IMG/VR virus record: IMGVR_UViG_2547132281_000006
Location: 1-25,188 of that record
Length of the DNA: 25,188 bases
DNA from: a virus
Lineage: Duplodnaviria; Heunggongvirae; Uroviricota; Caudoviricetes
Direction: 5' to 3' (one strand)
Below are positions 1,047-20,655 of the stretch, in pieces. The notes beneath the pieces were generated by a model. It was not told the origin of the DNA. It made no database searches and saw only the letters and a list, made by a program, of their open reading frames with translations. The number at the start of each line of letters is the position of its first letter. The stretch's first letter is position 1. A program made the translations under genes and the position numbers.

Positions 1047-1631
1047 TTACTCCCTGACAGGGTTCGTAGGCCACTCAATATCAGGTGCAGTTGATGTATC
1101 AACACGGTTCAGCAACACCCGATACTTTTTCCAGGCTTCCAGCAATGAGGTTTCTTCCTCCGTTGCAATTTCCAGATCTGCAGCATCCTGAAGCGGCGCA
1201 ATATGCTCACTGGCTACCTGCATCAGGTTGTTTTTTGTTTCTTCCGCCTCCCGGATCCGGAACAGTTTTTCTGCTTCTGCATCTTTCACCCAGGTTGTGC
1301 CGTTCCACTTCTGAAACTCCCCTTCCGGCGATAACCAGGTAACATTTTCCGGTAATAAGCCGAGTTCAGAAATAAATAACGCGTCGCCGGAAGCTACGTC
1401 ATAAACCGTTTTACCCCGATGATCTTCAACGAGATGCCACGATGCCTCATCACTGTTGAAAACAGCCACAAAGCCAGCCGGAATATCTGGCGGTGCAATA
1501 TCGGTACTGTTTGCTGGCAGACCTGTATGAGGCGGAATATATGCGTCACCTTCACCAATAAATTCATTAGTTCCGGCCAGCAGATTATAAATTTTTATGG
1601 TCCGTGCTTGTTCACTCATTCTGAATGCCAT
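1047..1631 (-). CDS. tfa: Tail fibre assembly protein (lambda Tfa family)
   Basis: 194-aa ORF with typical Tfa N-terminus ([36 protein letters not shown]) and conserved C-terminal block. Confidence 0.85.
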
Positions 1632-2322: not shown

Positions 2323-3828
2323 TCATGGCATGGCCATGAGCATTTTCACGTCCGCATCACCGTCTTCTGACGCCTGTGACACGCCCCCCTGGACCGCAGC
2401 CGGTGAATGGTTCGCCATGAAATGTTCAAACAGGGCGGTTGTGGATGCAGAGACCGGTTCTGCCTTACCTGATCCCGCAGCCAGCACAGCCCGGGCGCTC
2501 TCCACGGTCATTCCCGGGCAGGCAGCCAGCTGTTCAGCCTGCGCCTCAGCCCCTTTTGCCTCATCCAGGGCCATGATCTGATCACGGAGTGATGGTCCGG
2601 CATTCGCCTGCGGTGAAGCAGCCAGGATCGGGCGGGCTTTTTCCACCGTCATCTCCGGCATCGCCGCCAGCGTTACTGCCAGTTGTTCACGACCGTTCGC
2701 TTCTTCACACGCCATAATGCGATCGGCTTCACTCTGCGCGGATGCCACCGGCTGCTGCGGTGCCGCCGCGGCCAGAATCGCCCGGGCCTGTTCAACGCTC
2801 ATGCCCTGTTGCCCTGCCAGCATCGTGGCAAGCTGTTCACGTCCTTTCGCTTCCTGGCATGTCAGGATCCCCATCACTCGCTGGTTCTCCTGCACGGCGG
2901 CTTCCGTTGCAGTTAATTGCGGCATAGTGCCTCCTCTGACATTACTGTTCAGCGCCGTGGCCATCACACTGATGGCATCCGACGCATTGATTAATTCATC
3001 CGCCAGCCCGGCCTCAATGCCGGACTGACCTTCAAAAACGGCGGCCTCTGTTCCCGTGACCGCATCCACAGACAACCCGGTATACATCGCCACTTTTTCG
3101 GCAAACATCCGGTGCGCCGCATCAATCCGCTGCTGCATATCCTGGCGAACCTCTGCCGGCAACGCTTCAAACTGATTGCCATCCACCTTGTGCGCCCCGG
3201 CATAAATCAGCGTGATATCCACACCGGCCTGCGCCAGATGACCGGCATAGCTGACATGGCTCATCATCACGCCAATGGAGCCGATACGGGATGTCTGGGT
3301 AACCAGCCGTCGGGAGCAGGCCGACGCCAGCAGCATGGCTGCAGAACAGGCCGTGTCATTGCACAGTGCCCAGACCGGCTTCTGCTGACGGAGGCGGTAA
3401 ATCATGTCAGCGCAGTCAAACGCGCCGGCGGCCTGCCCGCCCGGACTGTCAATGTCCAGCAGTATGCCCCGCACCTGGCTATCTGCCATTGCCTGCTGAA
3501 GACAGGCGACAATGCCGTCATAGCCAGTCATTCCGGAAAATGGCCGCATCCCCCCCAGCCGGTGCACCAGCGTGCCGCTCACCGGCAGTACCGCAATACC
3601 GTTCACCACCCGGTAAACACGGGCCGGTCGTTTACCTCCGGCCATGTACTCGTCCGTTTCAGCCAGCATTCCGGGAGCATCAAGCTGTACCTGCTGTTGT
3701 GGTACCGAAAGACTTGCTGCCCCCATCTCGCGCCCGAGCGCGCAAAAGAAAACCCGCGCATAGGCGGGCTCCAGAAGCAGCGGTTCATTGAATGCTGCGG
3801 CAATAATGTGTGAAAGATTACGTCTCAC
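2323..3828 (-). CDS. C: Prohead protease / scaffold (lambda C/Nu3-like, S49 peptidase family) with tandem C-terminal repeats
   Basis: 501 aa; N-terminal S49/ClpP-like region (ILLDIDSPGG...); C-terminal part has three ~33-aa tandem repeats (EAKGREQLA...GMSVEQARAILAA). Confidence 0.85.
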   Translation of the reverse strand: MRRNLSHIIAAAFNEPLLLEPAYARVFFCALGREMGAASLSVPQQQVQLDAPGMLAETDEYMAGGKRPARVYRVVNGIAVLPVSGTLVHRLGGMRPFSGMTGYDGIVACLQQAMADSQVRGILLDIDSPGGQAAGAFDCADMIYRLRQQKPVWALCNDTACSAAMLLASACSRRLVTQTSRIGSIGVMMSHVSYAGHLAQAGVDITLIYAGAHKVDGNQFEALPAEVRQDMQQRIDAAHRMFAEKVAMYTGLSVDAVTGTEAAVFEGQSGIEAGLADELINASDAISVMATALNSNVRGGTMPQLTATEAAVQENQRVMGILTCQEAKGREQLATMLAGQQGMSVEQARAILAAAAPQQPVASAQSEADRIMACEEANGREQLAVTLAAMPEMTVEKARPILAASPQANAGPSLRDQIMALDEAKGAEAQAEQLAACPGMTVESARAVLAAGSGKAEPVSASTTALFEHFMANHSPAAVQGGVSQASEDGDADVKMLMAMP

Positions 3829-5410
3829 GTGGTGTTGTCTCCTCTTCCGGCCTGCGACTCTCCGCTATCTGCTGCTGATACGCCTGCGCTATCCACACCG
3901 GACGTGAGAGTCCGGCTTTTTCCCGCTCTGCAGATTCCCTGACCTGCTGGCGGAAAATGTCCTGATAATCCTCGCCCATCAGCGCCAGCTCTTTCTCATA
4001 CGTGCTCAGTCCGGCCTCAATGCGCATCACTGATTCCTGAACCTCCTTGAGCCCGTCAATGGCCATTCTTCCGGCTCCAATCCACTCAGCCCGTGACCAG
4101 GCTGATCGCGCCTGATAAAAATCAAAACGTGCCCGTGGCGGACGAATAATCCCCCGAAGAAGTGCCTCTTCCAGCCAGCAGGAAAACATCTGCGTGGCCA
4201 GCCGGGACGCAATAAATTTTCGCCGCCCCATAAAATAGCGCCACGACTCATTGGCGGAGGCGCGGGCACTTGAATAACTGACCTTCGAGTAATCACGGGA
4301 CAACTGTTCGTAGGAAACGCCAAGACCGGCGGCGATATACCGCAGCAGCGCCTGTTCAAGCGCCGAAAATCCATTGTCTGAATCCTGCGCGGTCTGAAGT
4401 TTCAGATCATCACCGGGGAAAAGGTGCGGAATTTTGACACCGCCCAGCGTCACGTGATTCGTGTCATACCAGGTGGAGAACTTATCCAGAATATTAATAA
4501 GCGGATTATCCTTCTGCCCCTGCGGCGCACCGGCGATATATTCAAAGGCCTTTTCGGTATCAAGTTCACTTTCAATCGTCGCTGCATACATCGCCTTCAC
4601 TATGGCCGACTGAAGCTGTGTTGCCTGCAGGGAATCGAGCATCTTCAGCCGTTCCATGACGCTGTAAAACTGATTAGCCCCACGGGTCTGCCCGTCCTCC
4701 ACCGGCTCGAAAATATGCAGCATGGCCGGACGCCCGGTGGGAAGTTCACGCGGGATCCGTTCCCATCGTCCACTACCAGAGAACGGAAAATCGTCCTCAC
4801 AGATATGGTACGCGACGGCACGGCCATATCGATCGACCTCCACACCGGCCCGCAGAAAACGGTTCCCCATACCGTGTCCAGGCGTGTCCACCCGTTTCGG
4901 ACTCACGGCTTTAAAACGCGTACGGAATAACTGCGTGGTTTCCGTATCCCAGACCGGCTGCACAAAGATTTCGCCGTTAAACGCATGAACGCCCACACCT
5001 TCACGGATAAATTCCGTGAACGTGCGTTTTACTTCCACGTCGATCTCACCAAACATCCCTTCGGCGTATTCCGACCAGGCCGCCTCCACCTCATCGACAA
5101 AGCTTTTTGCTGCGGTCTCCCGCATCCCCAGCCAGCGCCAGTTCGGACGGTAGCTGATCAGAAACATATGCCCGACAATGTGATCCTTATGCAGAGCCAC
5201 CGCATTAGCCGCTATTCCGTTATTGCGCACCAGATCATCTGCCCGGGCATTCCCCAGACGCAACGCGGGTAGCAGGGCCGCATCGGCACTCTGCGCCGGT
5301 GGCAACCACTCCGCCATTTGCCCGCCAAATCCTGCGCCGCCCCCGTTGTAGCTGAGACTCTCACGAAGCGGAACGCCGTTCACATCAATCAGGACAGGCG
5401 TTCGTTTCAT
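3818..5410 (-). CDS. B: Portal protein (lambda B-like)
   Basis: 530 aa; co-linear with recalled lambda gpB (YNGGGAGFGGQ, GNARADDLVRNNG, FEPVEDGQTRGAN, LRYIAAGLGVSYEQLSR). Confidence 0.9.
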   Translation of the reverse strand: MKRTPVLIDVNGVPLRESLSYNGGGAGFGGQMAEWLPPAQSADAALLPALRLGNARADDLVRNNGIAANAVALHKDHIVGHMFLISYRPNWRWLGMRETAAKSFVDEVEAAWSEYAEGMFGEIDVEVKRTFTEFIREGVGVHAFNGEIFVQPVWDTETTQLFRTRFKAVSPKRVDTPGHGMGNRFLRAGVEVDRYGRAVAYHICEDDFPFSGSGRWERIPRELPTGRPAMLHIFEPVEDGQTRGANQFYSVMERLKMLDSLQATQLQSAIVKAMYAATIESELDTEKAFEYIAGAPQGQKDNPLINILDKFSTWYDTNHVTLGGVKIPHLFPGDDLKLQTAQDSDNGFSALEQALLRYIAAGLGVSYEQLSRDYSKVSYSSARASANESWRYFMGRRKFIASRLATQMFSCWLEEALLRGIIRPPRARFDFYQARSAWSRAEWIGAGRMAIDGLKEVQESVMRIEAGLSTYEKELALMGEDYQDIFRQQVRESAEREKAGLSRPVWIAQAYQQQIAESRRPEEETTPRET

Positions 5411-13844: not shown

Positions 13845-14180
13845 ATGAAGTGGATTGTGATTGATACAGTTATCCAGCCATCATGCGGAATATCTTTTTC
13901 AGTCATATGGAGTAAAATAAAATTAATAATCTGGTATCAATCGGATGCTTTCTTACCTCCTGAAAGTATATTTACACTGACTCACACAGGCATCATGCTC
14001 AATAACAAAGTGCTACCTGTAACCATTTACAACGTAGTACCATTCAATAAAACATTCTGGAATTTAATCAAAAACAGCCAGGAATGCCCTACAAATACAG
14101 ATAACGTATTGAATGAATGCTTTAATAACCGTTGCACTCTGCAAATATGTCCTTATGGGCTAAAACAACAAAGTCCATAA
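13845..14180 (+). CDS. Hypothetical 111-aa protein in AT-rich stx-equivalent locus (uncertain)
   Basis: AAGGA SD 8 nt upstream; AT-rich; four Cys in the C-terminal 25 aa; antisense to the late transcript. Confidence 0.3.
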
Positions 14181-14214
14181 GGAGTTTACTCACATCTGAC
14201 AAAATCAATATAAA

Positions 14215-14236
14215 CAGCCCCTCCGGAGAGGGGCTG
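14215..14236 (-). terminator. GC-rich hairpin downstream of the tRNA cluster
   Basis: 9-bp stem CAGCCCCTC / GAGGGGCTG with 4-nt loop; on the minus strand followed by TTTATATTGATTTTG. Confidence 0.4.
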
Positions 14237-14471
14237 GAGAGTGGCGCTATGTGCCATTGCATGGTGCCGGGTGCCTCCCGGTGAATTCAGTACCAGCACC
14301 TGAATCCGCGATTATCCCATATACCTACTCGCTGATTGCCCCTCCGCACAGGGGGATTCACCATGCCAGTTTCTTTTAACAAACTCCCCGCAAACCAGAC
14401 AACAGTCAACCGCCTAAATTGTGAGACATTTAAAAAAAAGGCCCACAAAAGCGAGCCAGGGAAAATAAGTG

Positions 14472-14548
14472 TGGCGCGTTGTACTGGATTCGAACCAGTG
14501 ACCGATTGCTTAGAAGGCAATTGCTCTGTCCGGCTGAGCTAACAACGC
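14472..14548 (-). tRNA. tRNA-Arg (anticodon TCT)
   Basis: Reverse complement folds as a cloverleaf: acceptor GCGTTGT/ACAACGC, D-arm GCTC..GAGC, anticodon loop CTTCTAA, T-arm ACTGG-TTCGAAT-CCAGT, encoded CCA. Confidence 0.85.
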
Positions 14549-14561
14549 ATGATGCAGATAA

Positions 14562-14638
14562 TGGACCGCCATCGGGGACTTGAACCCCGCGCAACCAGCT
14601 TCGAAGGCTGGCGCTCTTTCCTGATGAGCTAATGGCGG
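14562..14638 (-). tRNA. tRNA-Arg (anticodon TCG)
   Basis: Acceptor CCGCCAT/ATGGCGG, D-arm GCTC..GAGC, anticodon stem CCAGC/GCTGG with loop CTTCGAA, T-arm CGGGG-TTCAAGT-CCCCG, encoded CCA. Confidence 0.8.
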
Positions 14639-14645
14639 TATGTGA

Positions 14646-14721
14646 TGGTGGCCCTTGCTGGATTTGAACCAGCGACCTGGCGATTATGAGTCGCTCGCTC
14701 TCACCACTGAGCTAAAGGGCC
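14646..14721 (-). tRNA. tRNA with CAT anticodon (Ile2/lysidine type, ileX/ileZ-like, or Met)
   Basis: Sequence GGCCCTTTAGCTCAGTGGTGAGAGCGAGCGACTCATAATCGCCAGGTCGCTGGTTCAAATCCAGCAAGGGCCACCA closely resembles recalled E. coli ileX. Confidence 0.8.
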
Positions 14722-14770: not shown

Positions 14771-15820
14771 TCAAACGATTAAATCCTGAACTTCCCTGAC
14801 TGTCTGCTCAAAACGTCCGGTCTCCAGTTCAACGCCAATCGCACGACGCCCGAGCGCCAGTGCAGCTTTTACCGTTGAACCTGAGCCCATAAAAAAATCT
14901 GCAACCAGGTCTCCCGGACGACTGCTTGCGCTGATTATCTGCTGCAGCATTTCTGCCGGTTTTTCGCACGGATGTTTCCCGGGATAGAACTGCACCGGTT
15001 TATGTGTCCACACATCCGTGTACGGCACCTGCGCCGTCACACCAAAATACCGCCGCAGATGCTTATATTCACTCTGCAGCTCCACATACTGCCGGTTCAG
15101 TGACGTATACGTATCCACCAGCTGGTGGTGGGGCTTTTCCAGTTCACCGCGCTGATGTTTCTCTTCTGCCACCCGGGCAAACAGCGACTGTAATTTCAGA
15201 TAATCGCTTTCGTTCGGTAGCTGCCACTGACTGGCACTGAACCAGTGCGACACCATGTTTTTCTTTCCTGTGGCATCTGCAATCTGTTTTGCCGTTATCC
15301 CCAGGGCCGCGCGCGCATCACGAAAGTAAGAAATCAGCGGGGCCATCACATGCTGTTTCAGTGCACTGCCCTTCGCCGCATACCCGGCATCTTTCGGACG
15401 ATACGGCCCCTGATAATGTTCCGCGAACAGAATGCGCTCTGTGGCGGGGAAATACGCCCGCAGGCTTTCCTTGTTGCATCCGTTCCAGCGTCCGGACGGC
15501 TTCGCCCAGATAATATGGTTCAGCACACTGAAGCGTTCACGCATCATGATTTCGATATCAGATGCCAGGCGATGACCACAGAACAGGTAAAGACTTCCGG
15601 CAGGTTTCAGCACCCGCCAGAACTGCGCCAGACACTGGTCCAGCCACTTCAGGTAATCATCGTCGCCCTTCCACTGGTTATCCCAGCCCTCAGGCTTCAC
15701 TTTAAAGTACGGCGGGTCCGTAACTATCAGGTCAACAGAATTTTCGGGTAACGACCGGATAAATTCCAGGCAGTCGGCGTTGATTAACTCACAACTGGAT
15801 ATTTTTACAGTATTAAGCAT
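14771..15820 (-). CDS. Orphan DNA methyltransferase, beta-class (N6-adenine or N4-cytosine)
   Basis: 349 aa; DPPY motif near the N-terminus (LIVTDPPYF) and FxGxG SAM motif near the C-terminus (DFFMGSGST); no adjacent restriction endonuclease candidate. Confidence 0.8.
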   Translation of the reverse strand: MLNTVKISSCELINADCLEFIRSLPENSVDLIVTDPPYFKVKPEGWDNQWKGDDDYLKWLDQCLAQFWRVLKPAGSLYLFCGHRLASDIEIMMRERFSVLNHIIWAKPSGRWNGCNKESLRAYFPATERILFAEHYQGPYRPKDAGYAAKGSALKQHVMAPLISYFRDARAALGITAKQIADATGKKNMVSHWFSASQWQLPNESDYLKLQSLFARVAEEKHQRGELEKPHHQLVDTYTSLNRQYVELQSEYKHLRRYFGVTAQVPYTDVWTHKPVQFYPGKHPCEKPAEMLQQIISASSRPGDLVADFFMGSGSTVKAALALGRRAIGVELETGRFEQTVREVQDLIV

Positions 15821-15950
15821 GGATCATTAAGCCTGTCTCTGATAGGCTCATTCTGCTTTTGCGCAAAGCAGTGGGCCTGAGGTTTGCTTGTGAACCCAAC
15901 GCATGAGCAGATGGCTGGTGGGTGCCCCTAACACCCACCAGCCGCCCATT

Positions 15951-15984
15951 TACCACAAATAAAAAAGCCTTCACTGCGGAAGGC
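15951..15984 (-). terminator. Intrinsic terminator at the end of the small ORF
   Basis: Stem GCCTTC / GAAGGC (loop CGCAGT) followed by TTTTTTATTT on the minus strand. Confidence 0.5.
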
Positions 15985-16168
15985 GTCTGTAACAACCGAA
16001 CTGATAGTCTGCCAGACCCGCCATAACCAGCTGGGTCAGTATTAACTGGCAGCGTTCGCGTGAAAGGTAAGTATTCTGCGCTATCTCCCCGACTGTCGCC
16101 GGTTCGGTAACGCTTAATTCATTAAACACCACTCTGGCGGTTTCTGTCATATCCTGCTGTTTTAGCAT
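15971..16168 (-). CDS. Hypothetical 65-aa protein, first ORF of the late transcript
   Basis: ATG at 16168 with AAGGGA SD; the longer 94-aa version starts with GTG and is less likely. Confidence 0.4.
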   Translation of the reverse strand: MLKQQDMTETARVVFNELSVTEPATVGEIAQNTYLSRERCQLILTQLVMAGLADYQFGCYRRLPQ

Positions 16169-16288: not shown

Positions 16289-16313
16289 ATAAAAAACCCG
16301 CCAGGCGGCGGGG
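16289..16313 (-). terminator. tR'-like intrinsic terminator downstream of the late promoter
   Basis: Minus strand: CCCGCC-GCCT-GGCGGG followed by TTTTTTATG, about 50 nt downstream of the predicted pR' -10. Confidence 0.55.
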
Positions 16314-16361
16314 TGTAAAAAATCTTCTAACGTCAGGCATAAAACGCCCATCGTTAGAGCA

Positions 16362-16389
16362 AATTTACCACAGATTCGGGAAAAATCAA
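16362..16389 (-). promoter_or_regulatory. pR'-like late promoter (-35 TTGATT, 16-bp spacer, -10 TAAATT)
   Basis: Minus-strand sequence GGTAAATTTGCTCTAACGATGGGCG resembles the recalled lambda pR' start region; located immediately after the Q stop. Confidence 0.55.
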
Positions 16390-16394
16390 CAACA

Positions 16395-17216
16395 CTATCG
16401 CGTTACCCTCTTTAACTGCCGCTCCGCCCATGCCTCTTCAATGTCAAACCGAACCACCAACGTATCGTAAAAGCGTTTCACTGATTTTTTCCACGTATCA
16501 AGCGTGATAGCACTCGTCACTTTGCATATGGCATTAAATGCCTCCGTTGATGGCAGCCTTTCACAGCCACGACCACCACAACGCTGGCAGTCTCTGATAA
16601 CAGGCATACCACGTTTTACCGACTCTTCACGATGAATGGCGACACCACGCCCACGGCAATCCTTACAGGCGGTGGAAACCTCACCCTTTCCGCCACACTC
16701 CGGACAGGCAACTTTTACCACCTCCCTGACTTTTTTCCATTCTTCCCAGTAAGACGAATACACACCTTTCGTACACTTTGCCCATACCGGCGGCTTACCA
16801 TCCGGATACTGGACCTTGTTTGTAAAAACCTCGCTTTCAATAAATTTTTTTCCGTGACAGCAGGGGCACTGTTTTTTGCTCGCCGCGCTACGGGCATAAT
16901 CTTCAAACGCATACGAAGCCATAATACGCATCACTGCCGGTTTTATTTCTGCCGGGAGTTTTCTTAACGCCGCCACGCGATCACACCGACTGAGTGCATA
17001 TTCTGTCAGCAATTCTGTTGCCCGCTCTCTGTCATTCATACTAATGCCCATTTTACCAAGGAACGCAGAAAACCCCATCTCAGCCCGATTCTGTGTCATG
17101 CCCTGCGCGGCCATCACATCAGTGATACTCAGCGCATCTTTCGACGTTGAGGCCGATGCATCAGTCAGGCCGGGGGATTTTGGGGAGTAGTATTTCGGTA
17201 AATCTTCCAGTTTCAT
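16395..17216 (-). CDS. Q: Late-gene antiterminator Q (lambda-type, enlarged zinc-binding region)
   Basis: 273 aa; N-terminus (YYSPKSP...TDVMAAQGM), middle (ASYAFEDYARSAA) and C-terminus (RFYDTLVV...KRVTR) parallel recalled lambda Q; four CxxC motifs; start overlaps the rusA stop (ATGA). Confidence 0.8.
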   Translation of the reverse strand: MKLEDLPKYYSPKSPGLTDASASTSKDALSITDVMAAQGMTQNRAEMGFSAFLGKMGISMNDRERATELLTEYALSRCDRVAALRKLPAEIKPAVMRIMASYAFEDYARSAASKKQCPCCHGKKFIESEVFTNKVQYPDGKPPVWAKCTKGVYSSYWEEWKKVREVVKVACPECGGKGEVSTACKDCRGRGVAIHREESVKRGMPVIRDCQRCGGRGCERLPSTEAFNAICKVTSAITLDTWKKSVKRFYDTLVVRFDIEEAWAERQLKRVTR

Positions 17217-20602: not shown

Positions 20603-20655
20603 TTTCTGGTGACTTTTGGCGGTATCAGTTTTACTCCGTGACTGCTCTGCCGCCC
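20603..20655 (+). ncRNA. dicF: DicF small RNA (ftsZ-targeting sRNA of Qin-type prophages)
   Basis: TTTCTGGTGACTTTTGGCGGTATCAGTTTTACTCCGTGACTGCTCTGCCGCCC followed by TTTTT matches recalled K-12 DicF with ~2 substitutions; lies immediately upstream of the dicB-like gene. Confidence 0.8.

Follow-up and report, generated by a model that had tools for sequence, protein, structure and literature searches.

How is a phage-borne DNA methyltransferase with no restriction enzyme beside it kept under control, and what part is played by the hairpins that precede its gene? The question is raised by a stretch of 25,188 nucleotides (nt) from a virus of the Caudoviricetes (IMG/VR record IMGVR_UViG_2547132281_000006, positions 1 to 25,188), referred to here as the window, which is an stx-negative lambdoid prophage with its late genes on the minus strand. 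Two of three hairpins in front of the methylase gene were found to be helices, named P2 and P4, of one 140-nt messenger RNA (mRNA) leader. Based on sequence comparison, this structured leader is tentatively identified as a translational lock, or switch, on an M.EcoGII-type methylase within the late operon, a reading to which we give a probability of about 0.55. The features concerned are as follows.

14771-15820, minus strand: methylase gene, encoding a predicted non-specific N6-adenine methyltransferase of the M.EcoGII family (349 amino acids (aa); PF01555 and identity to M.EcoGII)
15818-15958, minus strand: conserved structured leader of the methylase mRNA, through the AUG (covariance model, 116.4 bits, E 7e-27)
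15961-15984, minus strand: hairpin P1, overlapping the stop codon of a small open reading frame (ORF) and followed by T6 (terminator scan and folding)
15903-15949, minus strand: long hairpin P2, a GC stem (15943-15913) with the extension AUGGGC (15949-15944):GCUCAU (15908-15903)
15845-15877, minus strand: hairpin P4, the apical part of which is the 7-base-pair (bp) stem 15871-15853
15822-15895, minus strand: long-range helix P5, enclosing P4, with 5' arm GUUCACAAGCA (15895-15885) and 3' arm GGCUUAAUGAUC (15833-15822)
15883-15911, minus strand: alternative helix P3, in which UCUGCUCAUG (15911-15902) pairs with CACAAGCAAA (15892-15883)

The three hairpins reported in an earlier note on this DNA were all recovered by folding and the terminator scan. 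Hairpin 2 (15943-15913) is a GC stem of 12-14 bp with a free energy of -26.5 kcal/mol and a z-score of -4.9, and none of 200 shuffled sequences was as stable. The stem of hairpin 1, here P1 (15984-15967, GCCTTC/GAAGGC), gave -8.7 kcal/mol and was equalled by 10 of 200 shuffles, while the 7-bp stem of hairpin 3 (15871-15853) gave -7.3 kcal/mol and was equalled by 8 of 200. Shuffling of 50-nt segments for P1 was uninformative (-12.3 vs -9.4 kcal/mol). The whole 186-nt spacer was more stable than all 200 of its shuffles (z-score -3.55), and it contains a fourth small stem (15850-15828) absent from the earlier list. Hairpins 1 and 3 alone are only marginally better than chance; their support comes from conservation and covariation in relatives.

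The same note had proposed that the hairpins are processing or attenuation signals. A regulatory appearance was confirmed for the cluster, and P1 has the anatomy of an intrinsic terminator, with a GC stem directly followed by a U-tract (T6), and was called terminator-like by the scan. A hairpin at the position of P1 is present in most enteric loci, its sequence being varied, and is absent in Providencia and Morganella; at least five T residues follow it in only 23 of 79 distinct versions. Attenuation does not suit hairpins 2 and 3, which are missing from the terminator scan list, lack a U-tract (the sequences downstream are AUCUGCUC and AAUGAGCC, respectively) and form parts of one conserved leader. 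The best-supported role of these two hairpins is sequestration of the translation start and not attenuation of transcription.

Conservation of the leader was followed in a genome sample of 80 loci encoding relatives of the methylase (62-100% protein identity). Approximately 140 nt before the AUG are conserved in Escherichia, Kosakonia, Mixta, Trabulsiella, Klebsiella, Enterobacter, Citrobacter and Salmonella, and likewise in Buttiauxella, Rosenbergiella, Providencia and Morganella, also in loci with an entirely different gene upstream. Mean pairwise identity was 82% for the leader, compared with 71% for the methylase coding sequence overall and 46% at codon position 3. Protein coding was rejected as the cause of this conservation because every frame has stops in some copies, leaving none open in all, and because the leader varies in length (135-141 nt) by differences which are not multiples of three. 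A conserved peptide starting from an invariant AUG in the upstream part of the leader was also rejected, since the frame runs to 7 codons in 22 of 42 leaders but to anything from 3 to 38 codons in the remainder, and the sequence in Providencia differs; initiation at this AUG is possible.

The association of the leader with the methylase is equally regular in metagenome contigs, which were scanned with a 21-nt word from the leader. The methylase AUG was located 128-132 nt past this word in 108 of the 110 loci with enough downstream sequence; of the other two, one has a truncated copy of the leader and one a methylase gene that is interrupted. A covariance model of the non-Escherichia leaders recovered the window leader at 15818-15958 (minus strand) with no comparable match elsewhere in the window, and among the enteric, Providencia and Morganella loci the leader model matched once per locus. 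Two irregular copies were observed. In the metagenome locus L252 (approximately 4590-4760) P1 and P2 are intact, the sequence diverges right past P2 and no methylase follows, which suggests decay of the copy or a scar left by recombination. A Trabulsiella locus (L008) has a weak second match to the leader model at 2026-2098 (27.4 bits, E 7e-4), approximately 800 nt upstream of the real leader. No family in Rfam 15, riboswitch classes included, matched the leader at its gathering score, and at E values up to 10 the leaders of the window and of loci L011 and L074 gave only generic hairpin matches well below threshold. A scan of viral contigs for leader diversity returned only relatives at 95% identity or above.

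A single-stranded box, UGUGRAAAUG, forms the start of the conserved core of the leader. P2, in which an asymmetric internal loop of 4 nt lies between GC stem and extension, folds alike in 30 of 30 distinct versions (mean z-score -5.1). In the model-fitted alignment 97-99% of its cells are paired, with compensatory changes at six pairs, and P4 is 94.8% paired, with compensatory changes at three. The consensus pairing of P5 is GGUCACAAGCG with CGCUUACUGAUC, its 3' arm reaching to within 1 nt of the AUG in the window and to within 2-3 nt of it in the consensus; ahead of the methylase AUG no Shine-Dalgarno sequence was seen. Based on a MAFFT alignment, 92% of the P5 cells are paired with four compensatory pairs, a percentage reached by none of 500 shuffles, and slid controls gave at most 41%. 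The ground-state fold as a whole is 95.3% paired in the model-fitted alignment, which is biased towards the structure used for fitting; 13 compensatory pairs were counted, compared with 4.3 +/- 1.4 in shuffles (0 of 500), and slid controls gave at most 44%. At several positions G.U pairs occur (for example, 44 GU at one pair of the P2 extension) which fit the methylase sense strand only. Using constrained folding, the state with both P2 extension and P5 was the unconstrained minimum-free-energy fold in 24 of the 42 leaders. A local stem (ATCAG/CTGAT) before the AUG was considered and rejected, its substitutions being uncompensated in the alignment.

Helix P3, the consensus of which pairs UUCGCUCAUG with CACAAGCGAA, uses nucleotides that also belong to the P2 extension or to the 5' arm of P5, and therefore excludes both. 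The pair at alignment columns 110-136 occurs as CG in 22 sequences, AU in 10, UA in 3 and UG in 3. In an alignment fitted to the competing fold, the covariation score of P3 was 0.132 vs 0.045 +/- 0.007 for shuffled alignments (0 of 500). The ground state was favored over the P3 state in 32 of the 42 leaders, the mean difference being -3.0 kcal/mol. Comparison of the leaders shows a conserved RNA with two mutually exclusive and apparently selected conformations, one of which would bury the start region.

A lock could work in the following manner. P2 and its extension (AUGGGC:GCUCAU) would close first, co-transcriptionally. The middle segment GGUCACAAGCG would then be free to pair with CGCUUACUGAUC, and the resulting P5 would bury the 12 nt before an AUG which is without Shine-Dalgarno sequence; this would be the off state. 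Rare read-through transcripts in a lysogen would therefore give no enzyme, P5 covering the start. On loss or prevention of the P2 extension P3 could form, leaving the AUG exposed; this would be the on state.

A number of observations weigh against this reading. Translational control is inferred from the geometry of the leader. The P2 extension varies on one side only and has no true compensatory pairs, and an alternative register of the 5' box, GUGRA:UYNGC, is 91% paired, that is, equally well. In the window itself 8 of 10 P5 pairs form, two being mismatched, and the unconstrained fold takes the local stem 15850-15828 over P5 (-60.6 vs -58.3 kcal/mol). For P3 the count of compensatory pairs was 5 against a shuffle mean of 3.7, only 17 of 500 on this stricter and more robust measure; furthermore, significance is overstated by the shuffle controls because of the relatedness of the sequences. 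The small winged-helix ORF described below is missing in approximately 8-20% of the loci that retain the leader, and the non-specific activity of the present methylase allele is taken solely from 95% identity to M.EcoGII. Finally, other leaders precede the methylase in the Xenorhabdus and Photorhabdus relatives and in two enteric loci (L022 and L035).

In the Xenorhabdus and Photorhabdus loci (L047-L073; 65-67% protein identity) a shorter leader was observed at approximately 2880-3000, carrying a GGUGAAAUG box and a GC hairpin, GGCUGGUG...CACCAGCC, followed by UUCACC, which pairs with the GGUGAAAUG box. The leader covariance model had no matches in these loci, the box and the GC hairpin being the only parts in common. 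This shorter leader may be a second variant of the element.

The identity of the enzyme was investigated by profile search and by alignment. The 349-aa ORF matched PF01555 (N6_N4_Mtase) with an E value of 2.3e-44 over residues 29-340 in a Pfam profile search. The catalytic motif DPPY (residues 35-38) and the AdoMet-binding motif F-x-G-x-G (FMGSG, residues 310-314) were read from the sequence, and because DPPY precedes FxGxG the methylase is of the beta class. The ORF, the PF01555 match and the motif order are in agreement with the earlier description of a 349-aa beta-class methyltransferase at 14771-15820 on the minus strand. Its orphan status was likewise upheld: the neighbors are a 65-aa winged-helix ORF upstream and three transfer RNA (tRNA) genes downstream, and neither the neighboring genes nor the Pfam search revealed a nuclease domain or gene beside the methylase, as in a type II restriction-modification system.

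Aligned with M.EcoGII, the methylase is identical at 331 of 350 positions with two gaps (approximately 95%) over the full length, including the central target-recognition domain. The M.EcoGII sequence was that of Supplementary Table S1 of PMC11551740, a machine-read PDF with obvious reading errors, which are probably responsible for part of the mismatches; 18-19 substitutions were counted against it, several in the central target-recognition region. M.EcoGII is a protein of 349 aa from a prophage of E. coli O104:H4 C227-11 which modifies adenine in any context in double-stranded DNA, single-stranded DNA and RNA; in the lysogen it is silent, and cells expressing it grow more slowly (PMC5778455, Murray et al. 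2018). The same paper names a very similar enzyme in phage 1720a-02 and groups M.EcoGI, identical to M.EcoGII at 333 of 349 positions, with M.EcoGII as promiscuous (PMC5778455). Reconstructed ancestors of the M.EcoGII clade, although much more diverged, are still non-site-specific (PMC11551740). In our nucleotide search phage 1720a-02 was found to carry the same module as the window, with 94.7% nucleotide identity across the module.

By sequence, the 349-aa ORF is assigned to the prophage beta-class adenine methyltransferases of the M.EcoGII family, and non-specificity of the present allele is assumed from the 95% identity. The expected signature would be global, context-free N6-methyladenine; no discrete target motif is expected because the enzyme is approximately 95% identical to the non-specific M.EcoGII. 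The methylome search for a target motif suggested in the earlier note, and the absence of a new methylated motif as its refutation, were for the same reason mis-aimed. The genes of this cluster which are named "site-specific DNA-methyltransferase" are probably misnamed. An anti-restriction role, with the enzyme on only in lytic growth, has been proposed for the family (PMC5778455, PMC12707154), the role presumed in the literature being blanket protection of progeny DNA against restriction. The anti-restriction role after Q-dependent antitermination put forward for the window gene is consistent with this literature and with the late-operon anatomy; the idea of a site-specific methylase with a motif still to be found is not supported, given the identity to M.EcoGII. 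Full-text literature searches returned neither a description of the leader nor an account of the natural regulation or induction of M.EcoGII. The methylase type is already known, and the leader appears to be new.

Among the large genes of the late operon the methylase comes first, and it follows a lambda-type Q gene, pR' and tR'. The surrounding features of the window are listed here.

16395-17216, minus strand: late antiterminator Q, a lambda Q family member carrying an insertion rich in Zn fingers (PF03589, E 1.6e-49; 31% identity to lambda Q, E 8e-39)
16350-16389, minus strand: lambda-like late promoter pR' (alignment to the lambda Q-stop/pR' region)
16290-16312, minus strand: tR'-like intrinsic terminator, CCCGCC-GCCT-GGCGGG followed by T6 (terminator scan, 16312-16297; -12.6 kcal/mol)
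15971-16168, minus strand: 65-aa winged-helix protein, phrog_331 (PHROG assignment; AlphaFold2 confidence score (pLDDT) 92)
14472-14721, minus strand: tRNA trio, CAT (annotated Ile2, ileZ), Arg-TCG and Arg-TCT, directly downstream of the methylase, as in Stx phages
14440-14457, minus strand: terminator-like hairpin followed by T8, directly past the last tRNA gene
14206-14395, minus strand: STnc100 small RNA (sRNA; Rfam RF02076, 132 bits)
13845-14180, plus strand: iraM-like anti-adapter gene, between the tRNA trio and nanS-p, on the strand opposite STnc100
20604-20655, plus strand: DicF sRNA (75.8 bits), in a Qin-like immunity/dicB region
1090-1288, minus strand: match to the IS009 RNA family (225.7 bits), near the head-gene end of the window

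The order of the module is lambda-type Q, pR', tR', small winged-helix ORF, methylase and three tRNAs, with RusA also upstream. The Q protein has 273 aa and is 66 aa longer than lambda Q through a CxxC-rich insertion, which has a weak match to the DnaJ CXXCXGXG domain (E 2.3e-6). On the minus strand pR' is composed of a -35 element TTGATT (16389-16384), a -10 element TAAATT (16367-16362) and a pause element AACGAT (16355-16350). The block GGTAAATTTG.CTC.AACGATGGG, which includes the -10 hexamer and the sigma-dependent pause element, is common to lambda pR' and to the DNA just past the Q stop. By analogy with lambda, pR' would function as a promoter, and transcription would start near 16355. 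The tR'-like hairpin would end a transcript of approximately 65 nt, so that a very short constitutive RNA is predicted; the StxS situation described for Stx phages (PMC7547250) is comparable. A Q homolog, a promoter with pause element and then a terminator, the parts of a lambda-type Q-dependent late unit, are all present in the sequence, and the earlier placement of the methylase within a Q-dependent late transcript is supported by this anatomy: the Q homolog, the -10 and AACGAT elements identical to those of lambda, and the tR' hairpin.

Two words, TGTGGTAAAT and ATGGGCG, are shared on the minus strand between the pR' region (16362-16371 and 16345-16351) and the 5' end of the methylase leader (15943-15956), and the lambda pR'-proximal transcript ATGGG..ATTCGCTCG resembles the leader sequence ATGGGCG...ATTCGCTCA. 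This could be chance, or the leader could have come from a duplicated pR' region.

Downstream, the hairpin at 14440-14457 would terminate or attenuate that part of the methylase-tRNA transcript which does not depend on Q. STnc100 and the iraM-like gene fill the slot which is occupied by stx2AB in Stx2 phages (compare locus L001), and beyond the iraM-like gene are the NanS-p esterase and then the lysis and head genes. The module of Q, small ORF, methylase and tRNAs is found in many Stx2a, 2c, 2d and 2e phages with stx inserted past the tRNAs; in SfV, cdtI, mEp460 and Eeyore the methylase is directly followed by holin, endolysin and Rz. Of 5426 complete E. coli genomes, 3518 carried at least part of the module. 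Within this setting P1 would be a second, leaky terminator-like stem behind tR', through which Q-modified polymerase would read, and the combination of tR', P1 and the lock would make methylase expression doubly leak-proof in lysogens.

The 65-aa product of the small ORF belongs to phrog_331, annotated "TrmB family" or "DprA-like winged helix", and was predicted by AlphaFold2 (pLDDT 92) to be a single domain of the order H-H-H-beta-hairpin. A structure search gave generic winged-helix matches only (E > 1e-3), from which no function is assignable; they include the RNA-binding winged helices of SelB (E approximately 1e-2). The ORF immediately precedes the leader in 103 of 112 loci from metagenomes and in 62 of the 80 from genomes, and it accompanies the methylase across genera whatever the Q type.

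Three candidate triggers for opening the leader are proposed. The co-encoded winged-helix protein may act like Com of phage Mu; a ribosome on the invariant upstream AUG, which is preceded by GUGA/GGUGA, may play this part; or RNase III may cleave the approximately 20-bp P2. A more far-reaching and doubtful proposal is that the leader represents a new class of cis-regulatory RNA switch for M.EcoGII-family methylases, with phrog_331 as an RNA-binding activator which would open the P2 extension so that P3 forms and the AUG is unmasked. If true, phrog_331 would be a functional analog of Mu Com built from unrelated parts, and the arrangement would provide a threshold and a delay, with methylase made only in cells committed to lytic growth. 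The activator role of the small protein, drawn by analogy, is purely hypothetical.

Other explanations of the hairpins were weighed against a translational lock. They could be transcription signals only, that is, terminators or attenuators between pR' and the methylase which are overridden by Q-modified polymerase and have no role in translation. P1, a GC stem followed by T6 and located 300 nt behind the tR'-like terminator, was called terminator-like by the scan, and the annotation of phage SfV places terminators before the small ORF and after the methylase. However, P2 and P4 have no U-tracts, the T-tract of P1 is inconstant and P1 itself is absent in two genera, and neither the long-range helix ending at the AUG nor the covarying P3 is explained, so this explanation is considered unlikely. 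Of about the same low probability is a processing site for RNase III or another nuclease in P2, where cleavage would detach the methylase mRNA from the upstream transcript and determine how stable it is or how well it is translated, constitutively and not in a switch-like manner. P2 with its extension has 17-20 bp and one asymmetric internal loop in 30 of 30 versions. Known RNase III substrates, the lambda N leader and the T7 early mRNAs, are close to it in length, and removal of the 5' arm would free GCUCAU for P3. The nuclease explanation by itself leaves the conservation of P4, P5 and the single-stranded boxes unaccounted for; the cleavage site is a candidate one, and cleavage would be compatible with the switch as one possible trigger.

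That the conserved block precedes the methylase by chance, as a small RNA gene in its own right or with a promoter of its own (the box TGTGRAAAT being an extended -10), is quite improbable. The window box TGTGGTAAAT is the same word as the pR' -10 region, and the box reads TGTGAAAAT, resembling an extended -10, in about half of the leaders; the other half have G at the essential -11 A position, and the promoter scan found none on the leader strand, for which reasons a sigma-70 promoter in the 5' box was rejected. In addition, no terminator is present at the end of the element ahead of the AUG, which lies at a fixed distance and is abutted by the 3' arm of P5, and transcription starting within the box would leave the P2 extension, 99% paired, without its 5' arm. 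The least probable alternative, to which hardly any weight is given, concerns the enzyme: an ordinary site-specific orphan with a motif of its own, as the NCBI names of the cluster have it. The differences from M.EcoGII, several of them in the central target-recognition region, would agree with it. Against it are the full-length identity to a characterized non-specific enzyme, the grouping of M.EcoGI as promiscuous and the non-site-specific reconstructed ancestors (PMC11551740).

As a reagent, M.EcoGII is in wide use for the footprinting of chromatin and RNA; it is among the very few truly sequence-independent DNA methylases, and its control by the phage in lysogens has so far been described only as "transcriptionally silent". 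A second safety catch, acting post-transcriptionally, would be added by a leader whose helices exclude each other, and such a leader offers a target for mutation. Since the module lies between Q and stx in many Stx2a, 2c, 2d and 2e phages, the P1 stem and the leader are therefore also on the Shiga-toxin transcript.

Among known systems, the late operon of lambda is similar in having a Q homolog, identical -10 and AACGAT pause elements and a predicted short terminated transcript; in contrast, the window Q has the Zn-finger insertion and the predicted tR' transcript is only approximately 65 nt. Stx2 phages share the tRNA trio and nanS-p downstream with the window, which, unlike them, has no stx genes and carries the STnc100 sRNA and the iraM-like gene in that slot. 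M.EcoGII and M.EcoGI are, like the present enzyme, 349-aa beta-class proteins (DPPY then FxGxG), approximately 95% identical, and orphans on lambdoid prophages. The present enzyme is a different allele of M.EcoGII with its 18-19 substitutions, and the published work, which calls M.EcoGII transcriptionally silent, leaves a leader RNA unmentioned. The alternative structures of lambda cIII mRNA and the erm/cat-type leaders have the same 1:2/2:3/3:4 logic, with the last segment over the ribosome-binding region; by contrast, the window leader has no conserved leader peptide and no homology to either kind.

The closest functional parallel would be the com-mom operon of phage Mu, in which a small zinc-finger protein, Com, from a gene directly ahead of mom binds a hairpin of the mom mRNA and opens a stem that inhibits translation. 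The likeness would be in a promiscuous, host-toxic, adenine-modifying enzyme expressed only late, a small ORF directly upstream and a predicted stem over the start region. There is no relationship in sequence or fold: the window leader is larger and forms a three-way chain of exclusive helices, and its small protein is a winged helix and not a zinc finger, has no similarity to Com and is missing in some loci.

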